Shown here: one piece after another, positions 487-50,325 of the stretch | Layout: each line of letters starts with the position of its first letter | Position numbering within the stretch: position 1 is the first letter of the stretch | Source of the DNA: Chrysochromulina tobinii | Taxonomy: Eukaryota | Assembly (NCBI GenBank): GCA_001275005.1 | Contig: JWZX01002689.1 | Location: forward strand, 1 to 54,847 | Length of the DNA stretch: 54,847 nucleotides | Direction of reading: 5' to 3' | The notes under the pieces: model-generated | Seen by the model: only the letters and a program-made list of their open reading frames with translations | Told to the model about the DNA's origin: nothing | Databases searched by the model: none | Translations under genes and position numbers: made by a program

Positions 487-593
487 GCTCGACTGTTTTC
501 AAGTTCTCGCCAGTTTTCAAGATTTTTGAGACAAAAGATTCTTCACCGTCGCGCCGGTCTTCTCGCTCCCAAGCCGAGGCTCCCTCTGGCAGG

Positions 594-2420
594 ATGCTCC
601 TCGTCCTGCTGGCGTTGCCGGCCTTCGTGTTCCCGCCACCCATGGGCATGCGTTCTTCGCAACCGGCGTTTGCGTTCGTCCTTCCAAGGAGGAGCGCAAA
701 CGTGGTTGCGACAGGACACGGGGCAGAGCAAGGCCCGGGCGAACATGATTCTCATGTGGATCACGACGACCACGGCTACGGTCACGCGGTTGTACATCAC
801 GAGGCAACAGACGGTGGCGAGCACCACGGCGGCCATGCTTCTTATGAGGCCGCAGATGGTGGCTCGGAGGGCGGCGTCTCCGTGAACGTCAACGTGGCCG
901 AACATGGTTCTCACGAGGCCTCGGCCCAAGACAACCACGAGCATGTAGTTGTTGATCGCGAGGCGGACGGCGGGCACGGCGATAACGAGGTTGCGGATCA
1001 TGAAGAGCACGGCGGGCAGGCGCACAGCGGGCATGCGCACGGCGGCCCCGAAGACGGGCATGATGCTCCCGGCGGCGAGCACGAGGTTGCGGATCAGGAG
1101 GTGCACGGCGGGCAGGCGCCCAGCGGGCATGCACATGGCAGCCACGAAGACGGGCACGCGCACGGAGGCGAGCATGGGGTTGCCGATCATGAGGGGCACG
1201 GACATGCACATGGCAGCCACGAAGATGGGCACGCGCACGGCGGCGGGCTCGAGGTTGCAGATCATGCGGGGCACGGACATGCACATGGCAGCCACGAAGA
1301 CGGGCACGCGCACGGAGGCGAGCATGGGGATGCCGATCATGAGGGGCACGAACTTGCACATGGCAGCCACGAAGATGGGCACGCGCACGGCGGCGGGCGC
1401 GAGGTTGCAGATCATGAGGGGCACGGACATGCACATGGCAGCCACGATGATGGGCACGCGCACGGCGGCGGGCACGAGGTTGCAGATCATGAGGGGCACG
1501 GGCATGCACATGATCATGAGGGGCACGGACACGCACATGGCAGCCACGAAGATGGGCACTCGCACGGCGGTGGTCACGGGGTTGCAGATCATGAGGGGCA
1601 CGGACACGCACATGGCAGCCACGAAGATGGGCACGCGCACGGCGGCGGGCACGAGGTTGCAGATCATGAGGGGCACGGGCATGCACATGATCATGAGGGG
1701 CACGGACACGCACATGGCAGCCACGAAGATGGGCACTCGCACGGCGGTGGTCACGGGGTTGCAGATCATGAGGGGCACGGACACGCACATGGCAGCCACG
1801 AAGATGGGCACGCGCACGGCGGCGGGCACGAGGTTGCAGATCATGAGGGGCACGGGCATGCACATGGCAGCCACGACGACGGGCACGCGCACGGCGGCGG
1901 GCACGGGGTTGCAGATCATGAGGGGCACGGACATGCACATGGCAGCCACGAAGATGGGCACGCGCATGGCGGCGAGCACGGGGTTGGGGGGCACGAGGCC
2001 GCACATAGTGGTGCGGAGGGCGGCGTCACCGTGAACGTCAATGTCAACGTGAACGGGGCCGCCGAAGAGCACGGCCACGGCCACGAGAACAACGGCGGGC
2101 ATGCTCACGGCGGCCATCACGGCGTCGACGACCACCATCACGGGGGCGGGCATGGCCATCATGGGGGGCACCACAGCGGTCACCATCACGCCCATCACGA
2201 TGAGGAGGAAGAGGAGGAGGAAGAAGAGGAAGAGGAGCACCACCACCACCACCACCACGGAGGCGGGCATGGCCATCATGGGGGGCACCACAGCGTTCAC
2301 GAACATGGCCACCATCACGGGGGGCATGGCCATCATGGGGGGCACCACAGCGGTCACCATCACGCCCATCACGACGAGGAGGAAGAGGAGGAGGAAGAAG
2401 AGGAGGAGGAAGAGGAAGAG

Positions 2421-2455
<35 letters not shown>

Positions 2456-2912
2456 GGAGCACCACCACCACCACCATCACGGAGGCGGGCACGACCATCA
2501 CGGGGGGCATCACGGTGGGCACCACAGCGTTCACGAACATGGCCATCACGGGGGCCATCACGACGTCCACGACGACGGCGGGCACCGGCACGTGTCGTAC
2601 GTGTCAGACGACGGCGGACACTTTGGCTCCTTCGACGGCGGCGATGGCGATGGCAACCTTAATTTTTTGTTTTTGCCGCTTGCGACCCTCTTTGGCATTG
2701 TCTTGGGCATCATCATCCGCGACTCGCAGCTGCAAAACGTGTACTATGGCGACGGCGGCTTTCCTCCGCCTTCGGGCGGCTTTCCTCCGCCTTCGGGCGG
2801 CTTTCCTCCGCCTTCAGGCTTTGGTGGCTACTCGCCGATGAGCTTCCGCCAACCGTTCGACGGCCGTCCATCTCGATCTCCATACGATATGTACCGTGAT
2901 GATTACTATTGA
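594..2912 (+). CDS. His/Gly-rich repetitive type I membrane protein with poly-Glu and poly-His tracts
   Basis: ATG at 594 gives signal-like MLLVLLALPAFVFPPP. Then 25-aa His repeats, two Glu tracts each followed by H7, a TM helix (LNFLFLPLATLFGIVLGIII) and a short tail with GGFPPPS x3 and Tyr-rich end. Confidence 0.85.
1128..1995 (+). repeat. Coding tandem repeat, ~75-nt unit (VADHEGHGHAHGSHEDGHAHGGGHE), about 11 copies, with a 177-nt higher-order duplication
   Basis: gcacatggcagccacgaagatgggcacgcgcacggc recurs. The 59-aa block containing the DHEGHGHAH insert occurs twice. Confidence 0.9.
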
Positions 2913-3285
2913 GCGCGTAGGACATACGACCGGAGGCGACATACGGACTATAGTAAACTTGATTCTAATTTAGTGATAATGGACTACTCACAGACACAGT
3001 ATAAAACTGCCATAGAGATAACACCTAACGGGACGGAGACTAACGACTAAACATTGAGCTAACAAATGAGCCGGGACGGCCGCTCCACGCAGCGCGCGCC
3101 GCCCGGGGGCGCCCACCCGGCGCGGTGCGGCGAGCGCAAACGGCAGAGGGCAGGCGGGGCTGCGCCGTGGCAGCGACGGCAGCGGCTGCGCCGTGGCAGC
3201 GACGGCACAGCGTGCGCGGGACGGCGTCGCCGGCGCGTGGGCCGCAGCGGAAGCTTGGCTCGCGTCGGCCGCGTGTCACCTGGAC

Positions 3286-3395
3286 CTCACCACGGCGCAA
3301 CATCTTAGCTCACCACGGCGCGACATCTCGTATGCGCTCACCACGGCGCGACCGCCCGAATGAGCTCACCACGGCGCGACAGCTCGTATGCGCTC
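3286..3395 (-). repeat. Four tandem copies of the terminal codons and stop of the 3366..4481 gene
   Basis: ctcaccacggcgc occurs at 3286, 3309, 3337 and 3365 (spacing 23/28/28). On the minus strand it reads APW-stop. Confidence 0.85.
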
Positions 3396-4481
3396 CTCGA
3401 GAAAGATGAGCTTGAGCAGCTCAGGGAGTATCTCGCGATGGCGAATGCCTAGCAGCTGCTGCACCTCGCCCGACGCGAGCGCGTCGTCATGCTGGCCGTC
3501 GCTGAGCGCGGCCTGCTGCAGGCGGGTGTGCGCCGCCTCAAACGTGGCGCTGCCGAGGCTGCGCATCAGCCGCTCACGCAGCTTGGCGACGCTCGGCGCG
3601 CCGCTACTGCCCTTGTCGAAGAGACCAAAGGAAGGAGAGGCGGTTGCACTCGCCGAGTCGTTCTCTCGAGTGCTGCCAGCCTGGACGAGCGCCGCGAGCT
3701 CTGCCTCGAAGGCCGTCTGCGCGCCGCTCGTGAGTGCCTCGCGCATGATCTCGTCGGGGTCGGCAAGCTCGAGCAAGCGCCGCGAGTGTGGCGAGCGTCG
3801 TGGCGAGCGTCGTCCAAGCGCGAGCGAGGTGAACCGAGCACCGCGCTGCTGCGGAGTGGGCGGCACTGGAGGAGCGCCCGCCTCGGCAGTCAGCGCGGCA
3901 GCGTCGCTTACCTGCACTGGCATCGGATCCACTGGCTCCCGAGTCTGGGGCTGCTCGGGCGAGCCCACCGTGGAGAGAGCCCCGGCTTTGAGCGGCGACG
4001 CATTCCGCCGCTGCTGATGACGTCGATCGAGCTTCTTTGCCAGCGCCTCTGGCACCTTGACAGCGTCGCCACCCTTTGCTGTCACAAGACGCGCGTTCGC
4101 TGCATGACGCTGCGAGCGCGGTGTCGCCGTGCCGCCGCAATCTGCCAGTATGCGACGCTTGTTCCAGTCAGCACCGGCCTTGAGCTCGGAGAAAGCAGCG
4201 CGGCGAGCTGTCGGGCTGATCGCGCCTGGGCTGCGAGACGGCGGCGTGTACGATCCCTTCGGGCTGCGAGATGGCGGCGTGCAAGAAGAGCCTTTAGAGC
4301 TGTCTCCAACGTGTCCGCGCTTGGGAGGCGTCTGTAAGCGCTGATCGGCCATCCGAGTCTCCGCCTCGCACGGCAAACCGCTGCTTCCGCTCGCAAAGAG
4401 CGGCCATTCTTTCGTATCGGACGCGCCCGGAGGCACAGCGCGGAGCGGCGAGTTTTTCCGGCGATTGGATGCCTTGGGCAT
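3366..4481 (-). CDS. Low-complexity protein with a NIMA-related kinase (NEK1/4/11-type) C-terminal helical domain and no kinase domain
   Basis: C-terminus VAKLRERLMRSLGSATFEAAHTRLQ...VQQLLG...LPELLKLIFLEE resembles the conserved NEK C-terminal helical module. Likely start is MPKASN at 4481 (alternative MADQRL). Confidence 0.6.
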   Translation of the reverse strand: MPKASNRRKNSPLRAVPPGASDTKEWPLFASGSSGLPCEAETRMADQRLQTPPKRGHVGDSSKGSSCTPPSRSPKGSYTPPSRSPGAISPTARRAAFSELKAGADWNKRRILADCGGTATPRSQRHAANARLVTAKGGDAVKVPEALAKKLDRRHQQRRNASPLKAGALSTVGSPEQPQTREPVDPMPVQVSDAAALTAEAGAPPVPPTPQQRGARFTSLALGRRSPRRSPHSRRLLELADPDEIMREALTSGAQTAFEAELAALVQAGSTRENDSASATASPSFGLFDKGSSGAPSVAKLRERLMRSLGSATFEAAHTRLQQAALSDGQHDDALASGEVQQLLGIRHREILPELLKLIFLEERIRAVAPW

Positions 4482-4718: not shown

Positions 4719-7595
4719 ATGTTGCTCTTCGCACTCGCGCTCCTCGCTGCAGATGGTTTCCATCCCGAGCCGCCCGAGATGCTCGACATCAGCGACCGGG
4801 ATTTGCAGCGCGCCGACTCGACCTTTGGGCTCCTCGTCATGTTCGGGAGCCGCCACTGCGAGCCGTGTGCCACTCTGCGGCCCCACCTGACTGCGCTGCA
4901 GCTGCAGCTCAACAGCGACGGCATCGCCGTTCTCATGGGTGCACTCGACACGGATCGCTACTCGCAAGTGGCCGATGAGCTCGGCATCACGCACCATCCG
5001 TCGTTTGCGTTCTACGCCGCCCAAGACGCCAAGCCGCCGCGGCTCTACACAGGCGGCAGCTCGATGCGCGAGCTGCTGAATTGGGTGCTGGAGACGTACG
5101 AGCAAGCTCGCGTGCGCAAAGGCAGTGCGTCGCCTTATCGGCCGCGAACGCTGGCTGACACGCGGATGATGCATCCAAATGCGGAGCTGGTCCCGGGGCA
5201 CGGCCGGACAAGTGTCCTGCAGCCTCTCCTCGAGGAGCGACCCCCGGCGCCCGAGAACCTCAGGCCCGCCACGCCCGTCGAGTGCGGCGGAAACGCACGC
5301 ACCGCGCTCGCCGTCATCGGCGGCCAGCTCGAGCTCAGCGTCGGCGCGGAGCGCGAGGGCACGCCGGTGGCCGCCGCCGTCGGTGCGTGGGATGCGACTG
5401 GCGCTCGCTTTGTGCCGCTGGGACAGCCGCAGTCGGCCGAGGGCACCGCGACGCGCACCGGCGGCGGCACGCTCGCGGGCGATGCACGCGTGCTCGCGCG
5501 CAACCGCACCGGGTGCATCTTTGCCGCGGGCACGCTCCGCCCGTCGGCGACCGCAGCGCGAGGCTTCGAAGGCGCCGAGGAGCTCGTGGCGCGCTGGCAG
5601 ACGACGTTAGGATGGCAAGCGCTTCATGGCCCACTACGAGCGGCGGGCGGCGCCGCTCGTGCTGAGCGTCGTGCCGAGCGTTTTGCCGGGCGCGGGCGCA
5701 GCGACTGGGGTGTCGACGAAGACGGCGAGCGCCGTCCCGAGCATCTCGGCGACGCGAGCGACGAGGACGAGGACAATGCTCGGGACGGCGCTCGGGATAA
5801 CAACGCTCGGGACGGCGCTCGGGGCCACGCTCGGGACGACGCGTCGGCGGCCGTCGCGTACGCTGCTCGGGACGGCGCGATCGCCGCGCTTTGCGTGCAC
5901 GGCTCGACCCTCTACGTGGGCGGCGGCTTCACGCTCCGCCCTCTGGGCCTCGACTGCGCGAGCGCCGAGTCGAGCGCGGGCGCCGAGTCGAGCGCGGGCG
6001 CCGTGTCGAGCGCTGGCGAGGGTGCGAGCGCCGAGGGCTACCGGTACAGCCGCGCCGAGCGCGTGCGTGATCTGTGCCGTCCATTGGAAGGCGCCGTGTC
6101 GAGCGGGGGGCGGCGCGAGGTGCGCTTTGTGGCGGCGTGGCACGCCGAGACGAGTGAGTGGTCCGCCCTCGGCGGCGGCGTGGATGCGGCCGTGACGGCG
6201 CTCGCCCTCGACGGCGCGCGAGGCGTGCTGTTCGTCAGCGGCAGCTTCTCGCGTGTCGGCGCGTTGGCCACGCCGAGCGGCCTGGCCGCTTGGGACGGCG
6301 CGCGGTGGCGCGCGCCGTCCCGCGCAGTGAGCAGCCTGCCGAGGGGCTCGCGGCTCCTACAGCTGCTGGTGGGTGGCAGCCGGCTGTTTGCACGTTCCGA
6401 GGATGGGAGTGTGCATGTGCTCGCAGACAGCGGCGAATGGTCGGTGCTGCCACGACTGCCCGCACCGCTACGGACGGTTTCAACGCTCGCATGGCTCGAT
6501 CGTCCGCTCGAGACGACGCTCGAGAGCGCCGTCGTGAGCGCCGGCGAGGCGGGTACGGCCGAGAAGGTCGAGGACGGCGGCGGGCAGTACATACCGGTAA
6601 TACCGGAAGGGCAGCTTCTCGCGGCGGGTGACTTTGTGAGGTACGAGCGGAGTGGTGAGATGGGCGGCGTGGTGGCTTGGGATGGGCGTGAGTGGCGCCC
6701 TCTCGGCAGCACACGCACGAGTGCTCACGACGGCGCGCGCGACGACCAGGCGCCCGGGGGCAGTGCTGCTCGCCACGACGCTCGCACGCCGCCCGAGGGC
6801 ACTGGGGTGCGCTGGGGGCTGATCACGGCTTTGAGCATCGGCGTACTGCCGTGGGGCTCCAGCTCCACTGGGCTGCTCGCCGCAGGCCACTTTGGGCGCA
6901 GCCACGGCATGGCATGGTGGCGCGGTTGGGTGGACTGGGAGCTCGTGCAGGGCACGGGGACCGTGCGCGCGCTCTCGCTCGCCGATCGCGCCGTGCGGGG
7001 GCTCGAGGCGCCCACGACGGCGCGCGGACCTGCGCTCCGCTGGCCCACCACGGCGCCGGCGAGCGTCGTGGCGGGCGAGCCGATGTGGGTCGAGGTGGCA
7101 CCGCCTTCATCCACGTCAGAGTCGCAGGCGACGGGCGAGGGCGCCGTGGTGAGCGTACCGGTAGTCCGATGGGAGTCCTCTGTGGAAGGGGATGGTCCCT
7201 CTGTGGACGGTCCCTCTGGGGCTGGCCCGTCACCAGGCCCAGCACCGGTACCGGCACCCGCGTCGCCGCAGCGTGTTGGCGTGGCGGCGCTCGCGGCAGT
7301 CGAGCAATTTGAACGCCGCAAGGCGCGATACGGCCACCCAAACGATCGGCTGCTGCTCGGAGTGCTGCTAGTGTTGCCGCCGCTCTTCATCGCGTACTAT
7401 GCAGTGCAGGCACGAACCGACTCAAGCGTCCTCACGGCGCGAAGCCGCGCGCCCTCGCCGGCGCAGGCGTGGCTGACGGAGACAGGGCGCAAGCTATCGG
7501 CACGAGCTGGCACGGCGGCGCATACGCTGCAGGATGTTGTGCTGCGCAATGCGGAGCGGGTATTGGAGCGCGCGCTCATAGTACGGACAAGATAA
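4719..7595 (+). CDS. Secretory-pathway thioredoxin/PDI-like domain + Rax2-like beta-propeller + TM protein
   Basis: Signal MLLFALALLAADG. Thioredoxin fold with CEPC and YTGGSSMRELLNWV. Propeller blades LYVGGGF, WSALGGGVDAAVTALA, LFVSGSFSRVG, LAAWDGARW, VVAWDGREWRPLG. TM LLLGVLLVLPPLFIAYYAV. Confidence 0.75.
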   Translation: MLLFALALLAADGFHPEPPEMLDISDRDLQRADSTFGLLVMFGSRHCEPCATLRPHLTALQLQLNSDGIAVLMGALDTDRYSQVADELGITHHPSFAFYAAQDAKPPRLYTGGSSMRELLNWVLETYEQARVRKGSASPYRPRTLADTRMMHPNAELVPGHGRTSVLQPLLEERPPAPENLRPATPVECGGNARTALAVIGGQLELSVGAEREGTPVAAAVGAWDATGARFVPLGQPQSAEGTATRTGGGTLAGDARVLARNRTGCIFAAGTLRPSATAARGFEGAEELVARWQTTLGWQALHGPLRAAGGAARAERRAERFAGRGRSDWGVDEDGERRPEHLGDASDEDEDNARDGARDNNARDGARGHARDDASAAVAYAARDGAIAALCVHGSTLYVGGGFTLRPLGLDCASAESSAGAESSAGAVSSAGEGASAEGYRYSRAERVRDLCRPLEGAVSSGGRREVRFVAAWHAETSEWSALGGGVDAAVTALALDGARGVLFVSGSFSRVGALATPSGLAAWDGARWRAPSRAVSSLPRGSRLLQLLVGGSRLFARSEDGSVHVLADSGEWSVLPRLPAPLRTVSTLAWLDRPLETTLESAVVSAGEAGTAEKVEDGGGQYIPVIPEGQLLAAGDFVRYERSGEMGGVVAWDGREWRPLGSTRTSAHDGARDDQAPGGSAARHDARTPPEGTGVRWGLITALSIGVLPWGSSSTGLLAAGHFGRSHGMAWWRGWVDWELVQGTGTVRALSLADRAVRGLEAPTTARGPALRWPTTAPASVVAGEPMWVEVAPPSSTSESQATGEGAVVSVPVVRWESSVEGDGPSVDGPSGAGPSPGPAPVPAPASPQRVGVAALAAVEQFERRKARYGHPNDRLLLGVLLVLPPLFIAYYAVQARTDSSVLTARSRAPSPAQAWLTETGRKLSARAGTAAHTLQDVVLRNAERVLERALIVRTR

Positions 7596-7671
7596 AAATA
7601 TACTTCGCACAGCTTGAATTACAGAAAATTCTGTGAGCCTTCTTCACAGCCCTGCGGAAAAACCGTATCAA

Positions 7672-9297
7672 ATGCTCGCCGTCTTCATCGCCAGCATTCT
7701 CTCTCCGGCGGTACCGAATGCGGATGCGATCCCTGAGTTGCCCGATTACGGCACTCCACCGACGCTGCAGTGGTCGGGGTTTCTCAATGCCTCCAAGGCG
7801 GAGCCGGGCACCTTCCTCCATTACTGGTTTGCGGCAGCCGAGTTGCCGGACTGGCAGAAGAAGCCGACGATTCTCTGGTTGAACGGCGGTCCGGGCTCGA
7901 GCTCGCTCATCGGCATGCTGCAGGAGATGGGTCCGCTGATCGTCGATCGCAATGGCGCTCTGATGAAAAACCCCTGGGCGTGGACGAAGATTGCCAACTT
8001 AGTTGCGATGGAGTCTCCTGCAGGTGTGGGGTACTCATATTGTGCGGCCATGCTCACAGGCGGCTCGTGCGCCAACACTGACGTGTCGACAGCCAAGGCT
8101 GCCGCAGCCGCGATCGCTGACCTGTTCAGCACCAAGTTTCCGGAACTTCGTGCCAACCCGTTCTTCATCTCAGGCGAGTCGTATGCTGGCGTCTACGTCC
8201 CGACGCTTGCGGCCGAGATCGTCAAGGCAAACAAAGCCGGCGCGCCGCACATCAATCTCGTCGGTCTGGCCGTGGGCGATCCATGCACCGACAACACGGC
8301 GCAGGCCGACAGCATGGACATGCTCTGGTACGCGCACAAGTACGGTCTCGTGCCCGACGCCGAGTTTGACTTCTTATGGAATACGTGCCGGACTCGTGCA
8401 CCTTCGGCAGTGGGCGCGGGTGAGTGGCGGGCCGAGGCCTCGGTGGCGGGGCACGTGCGAGTACGGCCGACGCGCCGATCCTATGCAACTGCAACCTCGC
8501 CGGCAGACCAGGACAATTGCACGATCGCGTACCGCAAGTTCCTTGTATCCTCGAGCAAGGCGATCTCACAAGACTGGGACCTTCAGTACATCAACGAGCT
8601 CTCGTACTACTCTCCCGCCGCGCCCTTCCGCTGGGACGTGCCTTACACGCTCAACGGGCGCACGGCTGCGTACATGAATCGCGACGACGTCAAGAAGGCG
8701 CTGCATGTGGAGACGGCGCCCCAGACCTCATGGCCTGGGCCGCCAGACGGATGGAGTTACAAGTCGAGCTACGACGCGTGCAATGGCGGTGACAAGCTCT
8801 CCAACAAGTCGATGATCGACTTTTACCGCGAGCTTGCCCCAGCACTTCCGGGCAAGATCGTGGTGTTCAACGGCGACACCGACCCGTGTGTCTCGTATGA
8901 GGGTACTCGGACCGCCATCGAGCGGGTCGGCTTCCAAGAAGTGTCCCCCACGCGCCCGTGGTTTTTCAATGCGAGCGCCGCGACGTCGGAGTTCCTGCTG
9001 CAAAAGGACTTGCTCTTTGGGCCGGCCCTCGCAACCGTGGACGCCGGCCCCCAATTCGGCGGGAACATCGTCGATTACGAGCACAACCTCTCCTTTGCGA
9101 CTGTGCACGGCTCCGGGCATATGGTTCCGACGTACCGCCCGCAAGCCGGGCTCAAACTCATTCAGCACATTGTCGAGGATACGCCGTTTGCCCCGCCCGT
9201 GCCGTCCGATGCACAGATTCTCTCCATGTCCGAGGATGACTTTGACGCTTTCCTCGACACGTGGGTGGTAACGGCGAAGACGGCGCATTACGTCTGA
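7672..9297 (+). CDS. Serine carboxypeptidase, family S10
   Basis: Signal peptide; WLNGGPGSSS, ESPAGVGYSY, catalytic GESYAG, NGDTD and GSGHMVP motifs. Confidence 0.95.
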   Translation: MLAVFIASILSPAVPNADAIPELPDYGTPPTLQWSGFLNASKAEPGTFLHYWFAAAELPDWQKKPTILWLNGGPGSSSLIGMLQEMGPLIVDRNGALMKNPWAWTKIANLVAMESPAGVGYSYCAAMLTGGSCANTDVSTAKAAAAAIADLFSTKFPELRANPFFISGESYAGVYVPTLAAEIVKANKAGAPHINLVGLAVGDPCTDNTAQADSMDMLWYAHKYGLVPDAEFDFLWNTCRTRAPSAVGAGEWRAEASVAGHVRVRPTRRSYATATSPADQDNCTIAYRKFLVSSSKAISQDWDLQYINELSYYSPAAPFRWDVPYTLNGRTAAYMNRDDVKKALHVETAPQTSWPGPPDGWSYKSSYDACNGGDKLSNKSMIDFYRELAPALPGKIVVFNGDTDPCVSYEGTRTAIERVGFQEVSPTRPWFFNASAATSEFLLQKDLLFGPALATVDAGPQFGGNIVDYEHNLSFATVHGSGHMVPTYRPQAGLKLIQHIVEDTPFAPPVPSDAQILSMSEDDFDAFLDTWVVTAKTAHYV

Positions 9298-9561
9298 AAC
9301 CTGGCTCCACACCACAAAGGAATGAGGATGCGATGACGGGCGGTGGTTCCGGTCGGAGGTTCGGAGCGGTGTAGGAAAGGGGCGGATGCTGACTCGTGTG
9401 TGGGGTGGGTGTGGGGTGAGGAACTGACTCGAGGTGTCAAGTCAAGTCCACTTTTACATACTAAGCTGTGAATTCTGTCTTGAATTTGCTGACCGATTTT
9501 CCAGTCGAAAGTCAGACCTCGAAACGAGGGTCGAAACGGCGTCCCGCGAGAGGGTCTCAGC

Positions 9562-18582: not shown

Positions 18583-21500
18583 CTATTTCTTCTTCTCCGC
18601 GGACTTCGGACCGCCTGGTGTGGTCTTCTTCGCGCCCAGGGGGGACGGCTTCTTGTCGGCAGTCCTGCCGCCACTCGTCAAGGCGTACGCGCGGCGCTGA
18701 ATCCTCCGGAAGGCGCCGTTCAGCTCCCTGTAGTCCAGCTTGCCCGAGCCATCTGGATCGAGGGCCTTGAACACCTTAGCCGAGTCAGCCTTGCTGCAGC
18801 CGAAGCCCATGCCGTTGAGCGCCTGGTGGAACTCCGAGACGTCGATAAAGCCGCTCTTGTCGTCGTCCCACGAATTGAAGAGCTCGAGCACACGCCCCTT
18901 GGACTCTTTGAGAGCCTGCTGCAGCGCCCACTGGACGTACTCCGCCAGGTCCACTGTGCCGCCGCCGTCGAGGTCGAGCTGCACGAAGAGCTTCTTGAGC
19001 TCCTCGTCGGACATTTTAGCGGTCGGGTCGTGCTCCGGGTCGCGCATGCGTACCATGTTGCAGAACTCGTCGAACCCGAGCTCGGAGTTGCCGTCCTCAT
19101 CCGCCTTGAAAAAGTCATCCGCCTTGATCTGCATATTCGATCTGAAGTCGCCTCTCCCCTCGCCGAACACATCGCTCGCTTCAGCATTGGGGGATGTCGA
19201 GCGGGGTCTGTTTGTCGCCTTCTTGAGCCCCAGGACCCCCGCGATCCCCAAGCTTTTCTTGAGGAATTTGTTGAGCTCTTCAAAGTCAATTGAACCCGAC
19301 TTGTTGGGGTCGAACTCGTCGAAGGCCGCTTCGATGACCTGTCTGGGGAAGTCCGCTCCAATCTTCGCCCACGCGGCGATCCACTCCTTCCTATCAATCT
19401 CGCCGCTGCCATCGGCATCAAAGTCGCGGAACAAGTCCATGACGCGCATGTTTTTGGAGCTGAGGTATTCCTTGAGCGACTGAGCCACGGTCTTGGTCTT
19501 GTCGTAAGGGATCAGGGGGGGCGGCCCGGCGGCGGGCACCGCGACCGGCGGCGGGCGCGCCTGCGCGAGCTTGAGTTTGGCGCGCAGCTCGTCGATCTCC
19601 TTGAGGAGCTCCTTTTGGATGACGTGGCGCTCGCCCTCGAGCTGCGAGCGCTGCTCGTCGAGCATGCGCCGGAGCATCTTAGCCGCCGCCTCAGCGTCCT
19701 TGATCTGGCGAGCACTCAGCTCTTCCTTGGCGCGCCGTTCCGCCTCGAGAGCCGCCTCGGCCTCCTTGCGCAGCTGCTCGAGCTGCTGCCGCTCCGCGTG
19801 GGCGCCACGCAGCGCACGCGCGAGCTCCTCGGCCATGCGGTTCGCCGCCATGCGCATCTCGTCAAGCGAGGTCGAGAGCATTGCATTGCGCTCCTCGAGC
19901 TCATCGCGCTGCTGCAACACATTCGCCATGGCCGTGTTGTTGCGCGCGTCCTCGCTGGCGTACTTGGCCATCTCGGCCGCCTTGCGCCCCACTAGCGCCT
20001 CGAGCTCCCAATCCCGCTTCCAGGACGAGTACCCTGCGCTCAGCTTGGGCTTCGTCAGCCGCAGCGACGCGGCACGCAGCAGCCGCTGGCGCCGCGTCTT
20101 CTCGAACCACAAGTCGATCCAAGAGGTCATACCGCGCGACAGGTCCTTTGCCAGGATGCGCCGCGCCGCCATGCGCTGGAGGTGCGCAATGCGCTTCTCC
20201 TTCTCCTCCTCGCGCTGGCGCTGCATCTCGAGCTCAGCGGCCGCTTTGCCGCCGTCGAGCGCCGACAGCTTGTTGAGCAGCTCCTCCCGCTCGCGATTGA
20301 GTCGCACATTCTCCTTTTGGAACGCCGTCCGCTCCGCTAGCACCACTTCGAGCTGCTGTGTCTGGAAGCTCACGCTCGCCGCGAGGGCCGCCTGGCGGGC
20401 CGCGAGCCAGTCGCGGTTCCAGTGCGAGTACGCATTCGCGAGCTTCGGCTTCAAAAGCCGGCCCGCCGCGCTCTGCAACATGCGCCGCTTCTCGACGCGC
20501 TCTGTGTACAAGTCGTGCCACTGTGTCCAGCCGCGCAGCAGGCCCTGCTTTCCGAACCTGTGTGCGGCCATCGTCTTGATCTGCTCGATGCGACGCTCCT
20601 TCTCCTCCTCGAGCTTGCGCCGCAGCTCGGCTTCGCGCTCGGCCGCTCCGCCGTCCAAGGAGGAGAGTTTTTCGAGGAGCGTCTCGCGCTCGCGCTTCGC
20701 CGCCTCGAGCTTCTTCTCGTACTCGTTGCGTTGCCGGAGCAGCTCTTGCTGAGCATCCTCGAGCTTGAGAGTTTCGCGCCGCAGCCGCTGCTCGGCCGAG
20801 CCGCTCGCGCGTGCGATCACCGTCGCGCGCTCCCAGTCCACACGCCAACTCGAGTACGATGCAATCAGCTTGGGCTTGGTCAGGCGCGCGGCCGCCTTCT
20901 TGAGCAGGTTGCGCTGATACACCTTGTGGGACCACATCTCATGCCAAGCTGACCAGCCCATTGCAAGCTTCCCATTGATCATGCGCTTGAGCCCCAGCTG
21001 CGCCAGGTGCTGCACGCGCTTCTCCTTCTCCCTCTCGAGCTCCTCTTGGGCGAGGCGCATCATCTCGGCCTCCTGGCCGCGCCCGTCCAGCATCGCCGCA
21101 CGCGCGTCGGCGAGCTCCTTGTGTAGTTGGGCATTCGCCGCCTGAGCCGCCGCGAGCTCGTCGAATGCGTTCTTGAACTTGAGCTCCTTGCTGTGTGTGT
21201 TCGCGGCAGACATATGAGCCGTCCAGTCGTGCTTCCAGTGCGAGAGCGATTGGATGAGCTTGGGTTTGGTCAGGCGCGAAGCCGCCTTCTTGAGCAGGTT
21301 GCGCTGATACACCTTGTGGGACCACATCTCATGCCAAGCTGACCAGCCCGTTGCAAGCTTCCCATTGATCATGCGCTTGAGCCCCAGCTGCGCCAGGTGC
21401 TGCACACGCTTCTCCTTCTCCATCTCAAGCGCGCGCGCCATCTCAAGCTCCGCCGCCGCCAAGCCGCCATCGAGTTGGCTCAGCTTCTTGAGCAGCATAT

Positions 21501-24500
21501 CGCGCTCCTGAATGGCGGTTGTGAGCTTCTTCTCGAGCTCCTTCTTGACACGCTGCAGCTCCTGCTCGGCCTCGGCGGCCTCGTCGGTCGCCTTCTTGAG
21601 AAGTTGCTCGTGCGTGAGCTCCATATGCGCGTGGGCCTCCGCGTCCCACGAGTGCTTCCAATGGCCGTACGATCGGATGAGCTTGGGCTTGGTAAGCCGC
21701 AAAGCCGCCTTCTTGAGCAGGTTGCGCTGATACACCTTGTGAGACCACATCTCATGCCAAGCCGACCAGCCCATTGCAAGCTTCTGATTCATCATACGCT
21801 TGATGCCCTGCTGGCCCAGAGCTTGCACGCGCTTCTCCTTCTCACGCTCAAGCTCCTCTTGGGCGAGGCGCATCATCTCGGCTTCCTGGCCGCGCCCGTC
21901 CAGCATCGCCGCACGCGCGTCGTCTAGCTCCTTTTCAAGCTTTGCCACTTTGGCCTCGGCCGTGGCGCGCTTTGTCGCCTCGTCGTACAGCTTCTGCTCC
22001 TGCGTCAACGAGGAGAGCCGGCCAACCTCTGCCATGAAGTCGTGCTTCCATTGCTGGTACGACGCGACGAGCTTGGGCTTGGTCAGGCGCGCAGCCGCCT
22101 TCTTGAGCAGGTTGCGCTGGCGCACCACGTCTGACCACATCTCATGCCATGCTGACCAGCCCATCGCGAGCTTCTGGTTCATCATGCGTTTGAGCCCCTG
22201 CTGGCCGAGCGCTTGCACGCGCTTCTCCTTCTCACGCTCAAGCTCCTCCTCGGCAAGGCGCAAGAGCTCAGCTTCCTGGCCGCGGCCTGCGAGCATGGCC
22301 TTGCGCGCCTCGGCGAGCTCCTGAGTAAGCTGCTTAACCTGCGCAACAAGCGAGCCCTGCTTGGCAGCCTCCGCCTCGAGACGCGCTGCCGCCTGTGACG
22401 CAGCATCTGCTCCCATGAACTCCGTCCAGCCGTGCTTCCAGAGCGAGTACGACGCGATCAGCTTGGGCTTGGTCAGGCGCGCAGCCGCCTTCTTGAGCAG
22501 GTTGCGCTGATGCACCTTGTGGGACCACATATCATGCCATGCCGACCAGCCCATCGCGAGCTTCTGGTTCATCATGCGCTTGAGCCCCTGCTGGCCCAGA
22601 GCTTGCACGCGCTTCTCCTTCTCGGCCTCGAGCTTCTTCTGCATCTCTATCTCGGCCGCCGCCATGCCACCGTCGAGTGCCGTCAGGCGACGCAGCAGGT
22701 CATCGCGCTCCTTGTGTGCAACGGCAAGCTTCTTCTCGCTCTCGACATGCACGCGCTCCAGCTCCTTTTCCAACGCTGTGCGCCGCTCGGCGTGGTTCAT
22801 TTCGTGGCTGGCATACGTCTCGAGCTGCGCCGCGGCCATCGCTCGTTCCCAGTCGTGCTTCCAATGCGAGAGCGCTTGAATGAGCTTGGGCTTGGTCAGC
22901 CGCGCGCCCGCCTTCTTGAGCAGGTTGCGCTGGTGCACCTTGTGAGCCCACATCTCGTGCCATGCCGACCAGCCCATTGCGAGCTTCTGATTCATCATAC
23001 GCTTGATGCCCTGCTGGCCAAGCGCCTCGACGCGCTTCGCCTTCTCTTTCTCGAGCTCCTCCTCCTGCAGCCGCCTGAGCTCCGCCGTTCGCCCATCACC
23101 GTTGAGCATGGCCTTTCGGGCGTCCTCGAGCTCCTTGCGGAGCTTGCGAACCTCAGCCTCGGCAGCTGTGCGCGCTTTGAGCTCTTCAACGTACTTTTGC
23201 TCCACCGTCATCGCTGCTGCGGCACCAAGCGTTGCCGTCCAGTCGTGCTTCCAGTGCGAGAGCGCTTGAATGAGCTTGGGCTTCGTCAGCCGCGCGCCTG
23301 CCTTCTTGAGCAGGTTGCGCTGATGCACCTTGTGAGACCACATCTCATGCCATGCCGACCAGCCCATCGCGAGCTTCTGATTCATCATACGCTTGATGCC
23401 CTGCTGGCCCAGAGCTTGCACGCGCTTCTCCTTCTCCTTCTCCAACTCCTCTTCACGCAGCCGCTGCAGCTCCGCCTCGCGGCCGTTGCCGTTGAGCATT
23501 GCCGTGCGCGCTGCGTCGAGCTCGGTCCGCAACTTGAGCACCTCCTTGCGAAGGTCGGCGTTGATCGCATCGCGCTCGGCCGCTGCCTGGGCTGCCTTCT
23601 CGGCGAGCGTCATCTTCGCTGATGCCGCCTTGTCGGTAGCCCAGTCTTGTTTCCAGTGCGAGTACGTCTGAGTAAGCTTGGGCTTGGTCAGCCGCGCGCC
23701 TGCCTTCTTGAGCAGGTTGCGTTGGTGAACCTTGTGGGACCACATCTCATGCCACGCCGACCAGCCCATTGCGAGCTTCTGGTTCATCATGCGCTTGAGC
23801 CCCTGCTTGCCGAGCGCCTCGACACGCTTGAGCTTCTCCCTCTCAAGCTCCTCCTCGGCAAGACGCTTGAGCTCAGCCTCACGCCCGCCACCGGCGAGCA
23901 TGGCGGCCCGCGCCTCGGCGAGCTCCTTCTTCACCTTAGTCAGCTCGACAAGCACCTTGTCCATCTCGGCACTCTGGCTCGAAAGCTGACCCGCCTTCTC
24001 TGCCTGGGCTTCCTTCAACATCTCCATCTCCCAGTCCCGCTTCCATTGCTGGTACGACCCGATGAGCTTGGGCTTGGTCAGGCGCGCGCCTGCCTTCTTG
24101 AGCAGGTTGCGTTGGTGAACCTTGTGGGACCACATCTCATGCCATGCCGACCAGCCCATTGCAAGCTTCTGATTCATCATGCGCTTGATGCCCTGCTGGC
24201 CGAGCGCCTCGACGCGCTTCTCCTTCTCGGCCTCGAGCTGCCTCTGCATCTCCATCTCGGCTGCCGCCTTGCCGCCGTCGAGGGCGTAGATGCGCTTGAG
24301 GAGCTCGTCACGCTCCTTGACCAGGGCGGCGATCTTCTTGGCACTCTCAGCCTCCACGCGCTCGAGCTGCTGGCCCAGAGACTCGTAGCTCGAGGCCGCC
24401 GCTTTCTGCGCCTGTGCCTGCAGCGTCAGGTCAAAGTCTTTGAACCAATGAGAGTAGGCGGCCGAGAGCTTGGGCTTTGTGAGCCGGTTGGCGGCCTGGA

Positions 24501-27500
24501 GCAGAACGCCACGCTCATAACGCCTGGCCTCATACTTGTCAAACCATGTCGTCCACGCAGCGGTGAGTGCCTTGTTGAACACACGGGAGATTGCGCGCTT
24601 CTGCACGATCGCAATGCGCTCCTGCCTCTCCGACTCGAGCTTTTCGGCCAGCCGGCGCTGGATCTCGGCTTCGCGTCCGCCGCCGTTCATAGCGAGCTCG
24701 CGCGTGTGCTTGAGCTCGGCGGTGAGCTTCGCAAGCTTCTCCTCGAGCTCCTGACGAGCGAAGACCTCGGCCGCGAGCCTCTGTTCGCCCGTCATGGACA
24801 TCTGCGCCGCAGCGAAGCTCTCCCAGTCCTTCTTCCACTGCGAATAAGATTGGATGAGCTTGGGCTTGGTCAGCCGCGCGCCCGCCTTTTTAAGCAGGTT
24901 GCGCTGATGCACCTTGTGAGACCACATCTCATGCCAAGCCGACCAGCCCATTGCGAGCTTCTGGTTCATCATGCGCTTGATGCCCTGCTGGCCCAGAGCT
25001 TGCACGCGCTTCTCCTTCTCCCTCTCGAGCTCCTCTTGGGCGAGGCGCTGCAGCTCCGCCTCGCGGCCACTGCCGTTGAGCATTGCCTTTCGGGCGTCTT
25101 CGAGCTCCATGCGGAGCTTGGCATTCTCGGCTTCCGAAGCCTCGCGTGCCTTCAGCTCGGTGACATACTTCTCCTCGATAGTCATCGAGGCCAAAGCGGT
25201 CAACTCCGATTCCCAGTCCTTCTTCCACTGCGAATAAGATTGGATAAGCTTGGGCTTCGTCAGCCGCGCGCCTGCCTTCTTGAGCAGGTTGCGCTGATGC
25301 ACCTTGTGAGACCACATCTCGTGCCAAGCCGACCAGCCCATTGCAAGCTTCTGATTCATCATGCGCTTGATGCCCTGCTGGCCCAGAGCTTGCACGCGCT
25401 TCTCCTTCTCCTTCTCCAACTCCTCTTCACGCAGCCGCTGCAGCTCCGCCTCGCGGCCGTTGCCATCGAGCATTGCCGTGCGCGCCGCATCGAGCTCGGT
25501 CCGCAACTTGAGCACCTCCTTGCGAAGGTCGGCGTTGATCGCATCGCGCTCGGCCGCTGCCTGGGCTGCCTTCTCGTCGAGCGTCATCTTCGCTGATGCC
25601 GCCTTGTCGGTAGCCCAGTCTTGTTTCCAGTGCGAGTACGTCTGAGTAAGCTTGGGCTTGGTCAGCCGCGCGCCTGCCTTCTTGAGCAGGTTGCGTTGGT
25701 GAACCTTGTGAGACCACATCTCATGCCAAGCCGACCAGCCCATTGCAAGCTTCTGGTTCATCATACGCTTGAGCCCCTGCTTGCCGAGCGCCTCGACACG
25801 CTTGAGCTTCTCCCTCTCAAGCTCCTCCTCGGCAAGACGCTTGAGCTCAGCCTCACGCCCGCCACCGGCGAGCATGGCGGCCCGCGCCTCGGCGAGCTCC
25901 TTCGTGAGCTTGTCGACCTGCTTCGCCAGATCCGAGGCATCCTTGACACGCTCGGCCAGCTCCCGCTCGCGCTTCTGCTCCTTGGTCAGGAACTTGGAGG
26001 CCGCCTGGTCGGCGTCCCAGTCGCGCTTCCAGTGCCCATACGATTGGATGAGCTTGGGCTTGGTCAGGCGCGCAGCCGCCTTCTTGAGCAGGTTGCGCTG
26101 GCGCACCACGTCTGACCACATCTCGTGCCATGCCGACCAGCCCATCGCGAGCTTCTGGTTCATCATGCGCTTGAGCCCCTGCGAGCCCAGTGCCTCGACG
26201 CGCTTGAGCTTCTCCCTCTCAAGCTCCTCCTCGGCAAGGCGCTTGAGCTCAGCCTCACGGCTCGAGCCGTCGAGCGCAGCCTTGCGCAGGTCCGAGAGCT
26301 CCTTGCGCAGCCTGTTAAGCTCCATCTCCGTCTCGCGGTGGCGATGCTGCTCGTCGGCCAGCTGCTGGGCGACGGACATTGTCTTGAGCTTGGCGAATTC
26401 TGCGCCCCAGCTGGCGCGCCAGTGTCGGTACGATGCGACGAGCTTGGGCTTGGTCAGGCGCGCACCCGCCGCCTTGAGCATATTGAGTCGGCGCACCTTT
26501 TCGGCCCACATCGTGTGCCAGCCCGACCAGCCCATCGCGAGCTTCTGGTTCATCATGCGCTTGAGCCCCTGGCTGCCGAGCGCCTCGATCCGCTTCTCCT
26601 TCTCCTTCTCGAGCTGCTCCTGCGCCAGGCGCATGATCTCACGCTCGCGTCCCGTTCCCGTGAGCGCCGATTCGCGCGCGTGCTTGAGCTCCAGGCGTAA
26701 AGAGTCAAGCTCCTGCATGGCGATCTTGTACTTGGCCTGTTCCTCGGCGAGCAGCTGGTCCGTCGACTTGGCCGCCTGCACGAGCTTGTCCGCCGCCCAC
26801 AACTGCTTCCACTCTGAGTAGGACGCGATGAGCTTGGGCTTGGTCAGCCGAGCGCCCGCCTTCTTGAGCAGGTTGCGTTGGCGCACGTTTTCGAACCACA
26901 TCTCATGCCAGCCCGACCAGCCCATTGCAAGCTTCTGGTTCATCATGCGCTTGAGCCCCTGCTGGCCGAGCGCCTCGACGCGCTTCTCCTTTTCGGCCTC
27001 GAGCTGCTGATGCATGCGCTGCTCGGCATCAGCCCTACCGCCGTCCATTTGCTGAATCTGCGCAAGAGCTCGCTTGAGCTCCGACGCCAGATCGTCGAGC
27101 TCGCTCTGCAGGCGGCTCTCGTTGGCGCGCGCCTCGCTCAGCTGCTGGTTCTCGCTCTTGCCCAACTGTGCAAGGGAGGGCCACAGGCACGAGCGGATCA
27201 GAAGAAGGGCTAGCATCTCGCATGAATGTGCACGTTCACGACAGAAGGCACGGTATGGGTAGACACGGAGCGACGAGCGGACGGGGCGAGCGTGCTCCGA
27301 TTCGCACCTTGGCCTTCTCGCCGGCCGTCCATTCACGCCGCCAAGAGGCATACGCGGCCGACAGCTTTGGACGTGTGAGGCGGTTCGCTGCCGCCTTTAG
27401 CAGCCGGAGGCGGCGGCGCTTCTCGATCCACGGCTCGTGCCACGCGGACCAGCCCATGGCGAGCTTTTGGTTGAGCATGCGCTTGAGGCCGACCTTGCCA

Positions 27501-28836: not shown

Positions 28837-29379
28837 CGATCCGCCGGTTGAACAGGAACCCACAAGAGAGGGTCTGCTGCACGTAAGACGGCCTCTTTTT
28901 CCAGTGACCTGACCGAAGGCACGGCCAATAACGTTTTATTGCATGCTGCTTCTTTGAGAAACTCACGTGTCTCACACTCCGGACCAAATTGCTCCGGATC
29001 CCCAGGCACAAGGGACCAAGTATTTTGAGTGTACCTAAACCAAATTTGACTGTTCCGAAATTTAGCGGAGCCGTGCGTTACTACCGAACCTCTCTCTCTC
29101 GAGGCGCCTGCGAAGTGCGGTGGACCAACTCAATCATCACTAGCAGCTTCCCTGGTCTACCCCGCCCCGCGGTTCAAAGACACCGGGGGAGCCGGGACAC
29201 ACACAGACAGTACATGAGCTCTTTGAAGTTTGAACATTGGAACAAGCTCACCGCAGGTGTGTGGTTGTGATCAGTAGATGATGTGACCGAGGGCTCCCCG
29301 CAGGCGAGCCGACCTTCCGGACCAGCCGAGCATGCATGCATATATACCGCCCAAATTACCATATCGGGCATCGTAAACG

Positions 29380-29425
29380 CAGTTCAGTTCAGTTCAGTTC
29401 AGTTCAGTACTGAACTGAACTGAAC
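29380..29425. repeat. Head-to-head (CAGTT)n/(AACTG)n pentamer array forming a perfect palindrome centred on AGTACT
   Basis: gttcagttcagttcagtactgaactgaactgaac is self-complementary. Confidence 0.9.
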
Positions 29426-29550
29426 CAAACGTCGAGATCCATCGCACGCGCACTCATTGAGTGCTTCGAGAATCGCTCTCGTGCGCTGCGCTCGGTCGTA
29501 TTGTTGTTGTTGTTTCACGCAGGAGTGTGGCGACGTACAAACTGACGTAC

Positions 29551-33451: not shown

Positions 33452-33498
33452 TCCGCTCCTTCACCGAAACCCGCTTCCCCGGCTCTCCAGAAAACACG

Positions 33499-33573
33499 AC
33501 AAGTAAAGTCAAGTCGAGTCAAGTCAAGTTCAAGTCAAGTTGAACTTGACCTTGAACTTGAACAAGTCAAGTC
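33499..33573. repeat. AAGTC/GACTT pentamer array with internal inverted repeat, upstream of the Tem1-like gene
   Basis: caagttcaagtcaagtt-g-aacttgaccttgaacttg (33525-33560) is a near-perfect hairpin embedded in AAGTC units. Confidence 0.85.
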
Positions 33574-47808: not shown

Positions 47809-50043
47809 TTACTCCTTGAACAAGATCCGTTCCATGGCGAGCGCCGAGCGGCCCACGCAATAGTAGTCCTGCCGGCGGCCGGCGACGACAAAGCCCATCG
47901 CGAGGTAGAGAGCTTTGGCGGGCTCGTTGGTCTCGTCCACGTGGAGCGTGCAGCACTGCGCGCGCGCCTTACTTGCCATTTCGAGGGCGTGGGCCATCAG
48001 AGCGCGCCCCACGCCGGAGCGCCGTGCGTTCGGCGCGACGACCAGCTTGGTGATGGCGAGGGTGAGGGAGGAGCGCTGGAGCACTGCGTACCCGACGCAC
48101 GTGGTCGGCGCGTCGAGGGGCGCCGCACAGAGGAGCGTGACACCGCGGCCTCGCACCTCTTTGGCTACGTCCATCGCCTCATGCTTCGCAAACGCGCGCC
48201 GCTCGATGGCCGAGCACAGCCCGACCCAATTCTCATCCGCGCGGGCGGCGATCGAGACGCGCGCCGCCGCCGCCGTCGCGCGCGCATCGACGGTGAGGCC
48301 GCCTGATGCTGGCTCAGGCGCCCGTGTCGCCTCGGCGGGTGCGCGCTGTGGCGGCGGGTCCGGTGGCGGCGGCGGGGCCGGTGGCGGCGGGGCCGGTGGC
48401 GGCGGCGGGTCCGGTGGCGGCGGGGCCGGTGGCGGCGAGGCGCGCGGAGCAGCAGGCGGAGGAAGCTCCTCCGCAGCTGGGGCTGCCAGCGGGGCCGATG
48501 GCACGTCTGCCTGCGCGGTGCTGAAAGTCGGCCCTGGAGGCGAGGGTGGTGCAGATACCGCGGCATCACTGGTGAACACAGCAGCATCACAGGCTGTGCC
48601 ATCCGCCTCACATGCGCGGGGATCACCCGCGCCCTGCGCCTCGCACGCACAGCCGCCCAGCGCCGCCCCGCACGCCTCCGCCCCGACCGTGGGCTCACCC
48701 GAGTCGCCCTTGCAGCAGCGCCCAAGTGTGACGGCGCGCACCTCGTCGGTAGCGTAATTCGCGTACGAGCCACCCGCCTTTGCATAGTTATCCATCGGGT
48801 ACGTTGGCAGCCAGTCGCGCACCCCCAGGGCGATCTCCGCCTCGTACGGCGTGAGCAGCGGCGCCGCGAACGCGTGCCCCCAGTCAATGGAGAGTCGCGG
48901 GCATGCGACCTGGATCCATGCTTCCACATGCTCGATCGCTGCGAGCTTCGCCGGGAAAATCTCCGAGAGGAGTAGCGTGACCTGGGTGCATCCCTTTCGC
49001 GCGAGGAGCGCCTGAAGGTGCTGGAGCACGTCGGGGTTGCCCTGCCGGCCGAGCGTGCCGAGTACCAAGCCCCAGCGTGTCGCGCCGCGCGCCGTCGCGA
49101 TCGCCGCCTGCCTGAGCGCATGCATCCGTCCATGCTCGTATCGCTCGCGCGTGATGGCCTTTGAGTAAGGGTCATACCGGTAGAGCGGCACGTGCGGGTT
49201 CTGGATCATGACCGACTCAGGGTGGAAGCGACCATCGGCCACGAAGACGCACGCGTCGAACCCGTCGAGCTGCGGCGACGTGCATCCCAGCACCTCGCCC
49301 GCTGAGAGGGGTCGGCACTGCGGCAACTCCACCGTGGCGAAGCGAGCGCTGAGCGCGGCGCGCGCGGCGTGGAGCGCGCCCGCAAACTGGATGGTACCAC
49401 ACAGGGCGAGGCGCTGCTCCGGTGCAAAGTTGAGCGCCACCGTGTCCACCAGGTGCGGTGTGTCAATCGAGATCTCGACGAAGACGTAGAGCACGTCGGT
49501 CGCCATGCGATCGATGGGCACGAGGCATGAGTGGCCATAGTGCACGAGCAGCAGGCAGCCGAGCGCGGCGGCGCTCAGGTCGTCGACGCAGCACGCGCCG
49601 TACGTCACGTCGCCCATGATCACGCATTCGACTGCCGCGAAGCGCTCGAGGATGTCAGCGATCGCGCACGCGTACAGCAACAGGCCCTCGGGCATCTGCA
49701 GCGCCACAAGCGGCGGCTCTGACGGCGACAGCTGCTCGGCCGGCCGCTGCGCGATCATCTGCTTGAGGCGCCAGATGGTCTTTGGGATCTCAAAGTTATA
49801 ATTCGGCGGCAGCGCGCCCAGCGCGACGAGCAACTCTGGGTCCTCTGTGATGGCTGCCGGGATCTGCGAGACAAATCGGCGCCGCGGCGGCCGGGCCTTG
49901 GTCACCTTGGGCCCGGCAACGAGCGCCGTCGAGGGGTCAGCTGTGGAAGGCGCCGCGGGGGACTTCGCCGCCCCGAGTCCGCCGAAGCGTGGCCGCGGCG
50001 GCGGCGGCGAGTGAATACCCGGGTCGGAAGGCACGGTTGCCAT
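47809..50043 (-). CDS. DPH1: Diphthamide biosynthesis protein DPH1 fused to a C-terminal RimI-like GNAT acetyltransferase
   Basis: [81 protein letters not shown]-terminal [16 protein letters not shown]...[14 protein letters not shown]...GF...RRQDYY. Confidence 0.92.
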
Positions 50044-50325
50044 GTGGTACGACGTCGCTCTCGCAAGTGAGGTGTGAAATGAGAGACTTCGGCGTCTCGT
50101 CCTTGCTAGGCCGGAGCAACTTTGAGAATGCATCAGTCCCTGAGAATCACCATCCTACTCCGCGTCACTATTGTCGCTGAGCGTGCTGAGCCTCGGTGAG
50201 TTTTGTGTATATCGTGTGATGAGTCCCGTCATCAAGGAAGGCCGCAAGAGAGCTCCTCAAACAAGCCCTGGTGCGACACCAACCGTTGCCTGACCGTCCA
50301 GCTGGCCGGCGCTCGAGCGCGCAAC

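Follow-up and report, generated by a model that had tools for sequence, protein, structure and literature searches.

Why does an alga encode a protein that is almost one quarter histidine, and to which compartment would such a protein be sent? The question is raised by an ORF in Chrysochromulina tobinii (C. tobin), located at the start of a 54,847-nt stretch of DNA (contig JWZX01002689.1), the whole of which is called the window here. Its product, P0001, contains 188 His (24.4%), 176 Gly (22.8%), 93 Glu (12.0%), and 59 Asp, and is devoid of Lys, Cys, and Trp. The His fraction of this frame was 0.226, compared to a median of 0.027 among the 80 stop-to-stop frames of at least 200 aa in the window. 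The features of the locus are collected in Table 1.

Table 1. Features of the P0001 locus (positions in the window; residues refer to P0001)
Feature	Position	Strand	Basis
Probable short 5' untranslated region	556..593	+	RNA contig starts, four studies; weak hint
Complete ORF, 772 aa (P0001)	594..2912	+	Translation; frame open in L001–L003
Short signal peptide, residues 1–10 (alternative cut after residue 27)	594..623	+	Hydropathy; modelled helix 2–12
Transit-peptide-like stretch, residues 11–44	624..725	+	Phe at +1, three Arg, no Asp/Glu; RR without hydrophobic Tat core
Inverted repeat, ~31-bp stem, codons 20–41	652..717	+	Shuffle and grid z-scores
Acidic His-rich region with first Val/Asn strand-like motif (876–896) and two degenerate 31/32-aa repeats	726..1184	+	
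Repeat array: ten full His/Gly/acidic units of 25 aa (75-nt period) and two partial units of 9 aa (27-nt period)	1185..1988	+	
Second alternating Val/Asn motif, end of array	2025..2051	+	
Cassette 1: His/Gly block, E12 (2202–2237), H7 (2238–2258)	2133..2258	+	
Cassette 2: His/Gly block, E28 (2376–2459), H7 (2460–2480)	2304..2480	+	
Single predicted transmembrane helix, residues 689–708, GxxxG at 701–705	2658..2717	+	Hydropathy, AlphaFold2
Gly/Pro/Phe/Tyr tail of 64 aa, 7-aa repeats, conserved Tyr/Asp end	2718..2909	+	

The window has a GC content of 63.9%, and values of 63.4% and 63.6% are reported for C. tobin and C. parva (PMC8379373). Its genes are long and single-framed; in the P0001 ORF, no joint internal to the gene was found in six RNA runs and no intron was seen. 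Transcription was compared in these six of the 14 listed RNA runs (18 runs were listed in all, three of them with a freshwater label), together with X15 and X16, whose kind is unrecorded. Parts of the ORF were covered in 6/6 RNA runs. The 5'-most listed contig began at 556, 563, 570, and 570 in four of the six runs, from four studies, just upstream of the ATG, and X15 extended to 533. At the other end, the listed RNA contigs stopped at 2937 (X1) and 2986 (X10). Depth was zero at 3001–3240 in X1, X2, and X4 and at 3107–3507 in X3, X10, and X13, whereas X15 and X16 do cover the flank. The RNA contigs carry no strand, and no single one covers the whole gene; X2 contigs enter the E28 tract from either side. 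At the neighbouring carboxypeptidase ORF (7672–9297), X3 contigs spanned 7657–9338, with ends nearly matching the ORF.

An antisense ORF at 543–2558 (671 aa) was rejected: the RNA contigs end at 556–570, short of its stop codon, and the conserved tail falls outside it. An opposite-strand joint at 608/668 in X16 was read as a fold-back artefact at the hairpin because five other runs read straight through. Separately, a 35-nt piece (2052–2086) recurred with the same different flanks in five of eight runs compared, as in another transcript or locus, and probably belongs also to another His-containing gene.

The whole gene is spanned as DNA by locus L002, and L001 and L003 reach from the array to the tail; the frame is open in all three, which are probably the same strain and hence not independent. 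The L002 version encodes 872 aa, with four repeat units more than P0001. Since the three loci differ in repeat number, the true repeat count of the gene is uncertain and the copy number depends on the assembly.

Regarding the surroundings, no metal-related neighbour was found among those ORFs of the window that were scanned for families. The ORF at 4719–7595 encodes 958 aa: a signal peptide and a single thioredoxin-like domain with CxxC (Pfam E 3e-7) are followed by a long middle part without assignment, and a hydrophobic segment lies close to the C-terminus. On the reverse strand, an ORF of about 2900 aa at 18583–27351 contains about ten 130-aa repeats (390-nt period), and 47809–50133 combines diphthamide-synthesis and GNAT acetyltransferase domains in one frame, as a fusion or as two in-frame genes. 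AT-rich hairpin-forming stretches occur at 5-nt tandem repeats in the intergenic segments 29366–29435 and 33496–33565.

The body of P0001 is a His/Glu domain. Six His positions were invariant across the seven distinct DNA repeat units compared; the protein contains 66 HxH pairs, and only three Arg occur in residues 45–688. E12 and E28 occupy residues 537–548 and 595–622, respectively, and H7 follows each. Much of this layout had been anticipated in the initial annotation. Its count of about 11 repeats of 25 aa is a fair description of ten full units plus two partial 9-aa and two degenerate 31/32-aa units, and its two cassettes with poly-Glu of about 12 and 28 residues and H7 are borne out by E12 and E28. 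Likewise, its single TM helix corresponds to the one hydrophobic segment of transmembrane length (modelled helix 689–717), and its Tyr/Pro-rich tail to the Gly/Pro/Phe/Tyr tail found here. The two Val/Asn motifs flank the repeat array in related contexts and are candidate beta-zipper stickers.

An AlphaFold2 model of P0001 placed helices at residues 2–12 and 689–717 only, with pLDDT below 50 for 718 of the 772 residues; the input was a single sequence, for which low confidence is not proof of disorder, and the modelled picture is compatible with a disordered chain. Searches of P0001 against Pfam, NCBIfam, and PDB returned low-complexity matches only, with no family and no fold, and the ESM Atlas gave no usable match. 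P0001 and two neighbouring proteins were also absent from an exact protein look-up.

The N-terminus provides the main evidence on location. Two candidate cuts were identified by eye, A10/F11 and A27/F28, each leaving Phe at +1. The first has Pro at −2 and a signal peptide of only 10 aa; the second matches AXA-F but has a long polar c-region. After Phe11 the stretch is rich in Pro, Ser, Ala, and Arg, and the first Asp or Glu is residue 45, compared to residues 12 and 18 in two neighbouring signal-peptide ORFs. The 644 residues downstream of the leader are 23% acidic. Acid-free windows of 34 aa made up 146 of 5204 in 11 Pfam-supported ORFs of the window; if the cut lies at 27/28, the applicable figure is 919 of 5391 windows of 17 aa in neighbouring proteins. 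Beyond the signal peptide named in the initial annotation, the N-terminus also has a transit-like stretch.

The definition of a plastid leader asks for F, W, Y, or L at +1 and few acids among the first 15 residues (PMC12136025), AXA-F is given as a mark of such leaders (PMC5784005), and ASAFind has been used on haptophytes before (PMC5462543, PMC11014865). P0001 has both Phe at +1 and an acid-poor, net-positive run over the first 15 positions. For comparison with published leaders, 21 of the 122 Chrysochromulina rows in supplement 13 of PMC11014865 were inspected by eye. In four of the eight rows labelled thylakoid or probably thylakoid, F stood at the SignalP +1 position and the first acid came between +10 and +31; in two rows the signal peptide was about 11 residues long from Met. 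One non-thylakoid row had F at +1 followed by acids at once, so Phe at +1 alone is not diagnostic. By these marks, the N-terminus of P0001 is likely built like the chloroplast leaders of algae whose plastids have four membranes. P0001 does, however, lack a thylakoid-lumen signal, since the RR at 32–33 is present but no hydrophobic Tat core follows it, the next hydrophobic stretch starting at residue 689.

At the DNA level, the two halves of the transit-like stretch are reverse complements of each other, and among the hairpins found in the window this inverted repeat ranks first after GC adjustment. In 560–730 the hairpin reached z −5.0 against 200 shuffles; the GC-adjusted z was −5.9, beyond all 1566 grid windows, with the test window placed on the hairpin and the grid windows not. 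Because codons 20–41 form one inverted repeat, the composition of the stretch, including its Arg-rich end, may be accidental. A transit peptide may have arisen from the repeat, or the likeness to one may be superficial; the repeat may also be a translational control element. On balance, a plastid location of P0001 appears moderately probable, and a secretory location is conceivable though doubtful.

A second leader was found among relatives of the tail. Only two of 24 relatives have an N-terminus, the metagenomic proteins P0012 (221 aa) and P0020 (195 aa), each encoded on its own contig of roughly 1.1 kb. Thylakoid-lumen leaders of the Tat type are defined by a twin-Arg, a hydrophobic core, and AXA (PMC5784005). 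P0012 and P0020 carry a signal peptide, a short transit peptide, a twin-Arg, a hydrophobic core, and AFA, the full Tat lumen set. Beyond the leader they start with His/Asp, E7, and H7 and continue into the helix and tail as in P0001. Their leader is not homologous to that of P0001; over 52 aa it shares 73% identity with the leader found in an unrelated family (P0026, P0029–P0051). That family is unnamed and widespread (at least 39 cluster members, signal, transit, and twin-Arg leader, no NCBIfam match), and its gene calls are probably first exons only. P0020 had one lead-only match (0.75) in the ESM Atlas. The exact P0012/P0020 leader with another continuation was not found among 50% representatives of all lengths or among proteins of 107–342 aa, and the leader was absent from the window, L001–L007, and viral and prokaryote contigs.

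Whether P0012 and P0020 represent a real short paralogue or assembly chimeras appears nearly even from their sequences. For a paralogue, the identical join occurs twice, and the six residues ahead of the Glu run resemble those of cassette 2. For a chimera, the leader–cassette join falls at a triplet repeat, and the two proteins carry different tail alleles, each common to long-form alleles. In either case, the samples seem to contain a protein that is addressed to the lumen and begins with His, Asp, and poly-Glu.

The helix bears on the same problem. Three Asp lie on its N side and an Arg directly on its C side, and with the positive-inside rule these charges favour an N-out/C-in (type I) orientation. 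They suit the Tat form, or a type I protein of the secretory route, better than a His domain facing the stroma. GxxxG was retained in 15/15 rows of alignment A2, and a two-copy structure prediction of the helix and its flanks scored 0.16 against a mark of 0.32 and counts neither for nor against pairing. The tail resembles cytosolic tails of the Gly/Pro/Tyr type, but the cytosolic side assigned to it in the initial annotation is only putative; the number of FPPPS copies in it varied from 1 to 6 among relatives.

The strongest alternative is a type I membrane protein of the secretory pathway, located in the ER, Golgi, acidic vacuole, food vacuole, or cell surface. Residues 11–33 would then be a pro-peptide cut at RR, which may be a dibasic site, and the lumenal or external His/Glu domain would bind trace metals at neutral pH and free them in an acid compartment, close to the metal sponge originally proposed. 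A signal peptide with one helix and a short tail, the acidic residues before the helix and the Arg after it, and a YxxM in the tail allele of the window would suit such a protein, and HRC, of similar make-up, is described as a secretory-lumen protein (PMC6171002). However, the Phe at +1 and the 34 acid-free residues are unlike the two neighbouring signal-peptide ORFs, and both relatives with an N-terminus have a plastid-lumen leader. Furthermore, YxxM is abolished by an M/T polymorphism, any Yxx-hydrophobic motif occurs in only 10 of the 24 relatives, and Tyr-based sorting motifs are not conserved across the tails. P0001 also has no N-glycosylation sequon, which weighs little because fewer than one is expected from its composition. 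Overall, we consider this secretory type I protein unlikely. The candidate metal sponge of the initial annotation stands in its architecture and is partly supported as a function, but its placement at the cell surface, in the Golgi, or in a scale matrix has become the second choice, owing to a leader with Phe at +1 and no acid before residue 45.

The family of P0001 is narrow. A search with the tail returned three clusters with 24 members, all short gene calls, and 14 aligned relatives were 83–99% identical. No relative below 83% identity was found among 1.84 billion representatives or in word-index searches, and a full HMMER search of these representatives with P0020 found no distant tail relative. 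A word-index search of residues 660–772 against proteins of 424–1351 aa scored none of 665 candidates, and viral and prokaryote contigs yielded no relative. P0027 (25% identity) and P0028 (44%), among four HMMER matches, are repeat proteins and were set aside as chance; L007, among seven loci, matched at 44% over 34 aa only and was dropped.

This narrowness would also be expected of a young, lineage-restricted low-complexity gene whose His content built up as unstable repeats expanded; the His domain would then be a spacer, with any function confined to the helix and tail. The repeat number that differs between assemblies points the same way, as do the His blocks after H7, which are shorter in P0020 and P0021. 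The repeat units showed three synonymous-only versus nine non-synonymous codons, with no synonymous excess, and this test favoured no reading frame. Against this explanation stand the transcription in all six RNA runs compared and the six invariant His positions. In addition, the listed length changes within the ORF all keep the frame (3, 21, and 42 nt, and units of 75 and 27 nt), whereas several of those listed 3' of the stop do not (1, 2, 19, and 26 nt among others). A functionless His spacer is thus improbable in our view, and P0001 is a real, expressed, lineage-restricted His/Glu membrane protein.

The pH response of the His/Glu domain was estimated with an independent-site model. Residues 41–688 contain 188 His and 146 Asp plus Glu, and the net charge of the domain was about −132 at pH 7.5, −16 at pH 6.0, and +25 at pH 5.5, crossing zero near 5.8. 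In the same model, each chain took up 91–134 protons from pH 7.5 to 6.0 and 15–62 from pH 8.0 to 7.0. Thus, the term polyampholyte, applied earlier to this domain, does not hold at pH 7.5, where it is a polyanion, and is apt only near pH 5.8, where its charges balance.

Such a charge reversal, together with His/Gly-rich repeats and two Val/Asn motifs, could also serve a structural matrix or adhesive, in which metal- or pH-triggered condensation of His/Gly chains would build a scale, coat, mucus, or haptonema matrix after the manner of the His-rich condensing matrix proteins of squid beak and worm jaw. Coacervates of that type are driven by aromatic residues; these are rare in the His domain, with 10 Tyr in the whole of P0001, mostly in the tail, and the leader evidence points to the plastid. 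Since C. tobin is described as naturally wall-less, in contrast to scaled haptophytes (PMC4580454), the scale-matrix idea is weakened further, and we regard the matrix explanation as very improbable.

Taken from its sequence features, P0001 would most reasonably be read as a disordered, membrane-tethered, pH-switched buffer of metals and protons. Combined with the address, a pH-switched metal and proton store delivered to a chloroplast membrane is the best joint explanation, to which we would give a probability of roughly 0.4. Under this explanation, the signal peptide and the Phe-led, acid-free transit peptide would carry P0001 across the four membranes around the plastid, with the C-terminal helix as its anchor in a chloroplast membrane. 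The His domain of the long form would face the stroma or an envelope space, since the thylakoid-transfer domain is missing. His clusters are established binders of transition metals, and carboxylate runs of Ca or Mn. In P0001, the 187 His, with their HxH pairs, may act as a low-affinity, high-capacity store of Zn, Ni, Cu, or Mn, while Ca, Mg, or Mn may be taken up by the poly-Glu tracts. At neutral pH, the predicted disordered chain of about 650 residues would be an extended, metal-loaded polyanion. Protonation of His would compete with metal, so that acidification would release the metal and the chains would collapse or condense, perhaps assisted by the two Val/Asn motifs. The predicted switch would be strongest in an acidifying space, such as the thylakoid lumen or a vacuole, and milder in the stroma.

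A more elaborate version would join both leaders in one system. A lineage-specific pair of thylakoid-anchored His/Glu polymers, alike in helix and tail but with swapped leaders, would send the short Tat form to the lumen and place the long form on another plastid face, as a light-driven reservoir trading about 100 protons per long chain for Zn or Mn. This would steady the pH of the lumen and provide metal for carbonic anhydrase or for the repair of photosystem II. This pair remains speculative, and we hold it to be quite unlikely.

P0001 was compared to several known systems. ZIP (SLC39) and CDF transporters have His-rich ectodomains or loops, and HxH-spaced His/Gly segments are shared with P0001. 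However, P0001 has one helix and no Pfam or NCBIfam transporter match, and the stop and the transcript end follow the tail; P0020 matched the CDF protein DmeF faintly (E 0.023; 14 bits, where the cut-off is 250). A ZIP or CDF transporter was rejected for want of a multi-helix transporter domain. Metallohistins are small, secreted, Gly/His-rich proteins. Those of Alnus glutinosa nodules are described as sequestering Zn, Ni, Co, Cu, and Cd (PMC11534348). Compared by description, they share with P0001 the His-rich, metal-sequestering type in a photosynthetic eukaryote, but P0001 is far longer and has poly-Glu tracts and a membrane anchor.

P0001 also resembles muscle HRC, whose His-rich/acidic repeats and poly-Glu are described as giving low-affinity, high-capacity Ca binding (PMC6171002). 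HRC is described with an N-terminal signal sequence, for which P0001 has a candidate in its hydrophobic N-terminus ahead of the transit-like stretch. Both proteins have His-rich/acidic units in tandem (9 x 29 aa in HRC and 10 x 25 aa in P0001) and a poly-Glu stretch, and low-affinity, high-capacity cation binding is the proposed mode for P0001. By the same description, the HRC repeats consist of HRHRGH with 10–11 acidic residues, a motif absent from P0001; HRC has a C-terminal cluster of 14 Cys where P0001 has none; and the His share is 13% in HRC versus 24% in P0001, which adds a transmembrane anchor, a tail, and a plastid-type leader. P0001 is not an HRC member; the likeness is one of analogy, with no sequence relationship found. 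For the candidate pair of P0012/P0020 and P0001, a precedent is described in cryptophyte phycoerythrin alpha1/alpha2 pairs, in which related proteins either carry a Tat lumen domain after the signal and transit peptides or lack it (PMC5784005). The proteins themselves are unrelated to ours, the leaders of P0001 and P0012/P0020 are non-homologous, and the short form is only a candidate.

Disordered His-rich metal stores are familiar from animals, plants, and bacteria, in the cytosol or along the secretory pathway. At the level of titles and abstracts, with subscription literature mostly outside, no report of a membrane-anchored one was found for a haptophyte or algal plastid. Should P0001 be secretory, it would be a sizeable yet rather ordinary His-rich protein restricted to its lineage. 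Should its address be plastidial, it would be a simple, expressible candidate for trace-metal storage and proton buffering in a complex plastid, and the pair of leaders would illustrate how an address is acquired by new plastid proteins.
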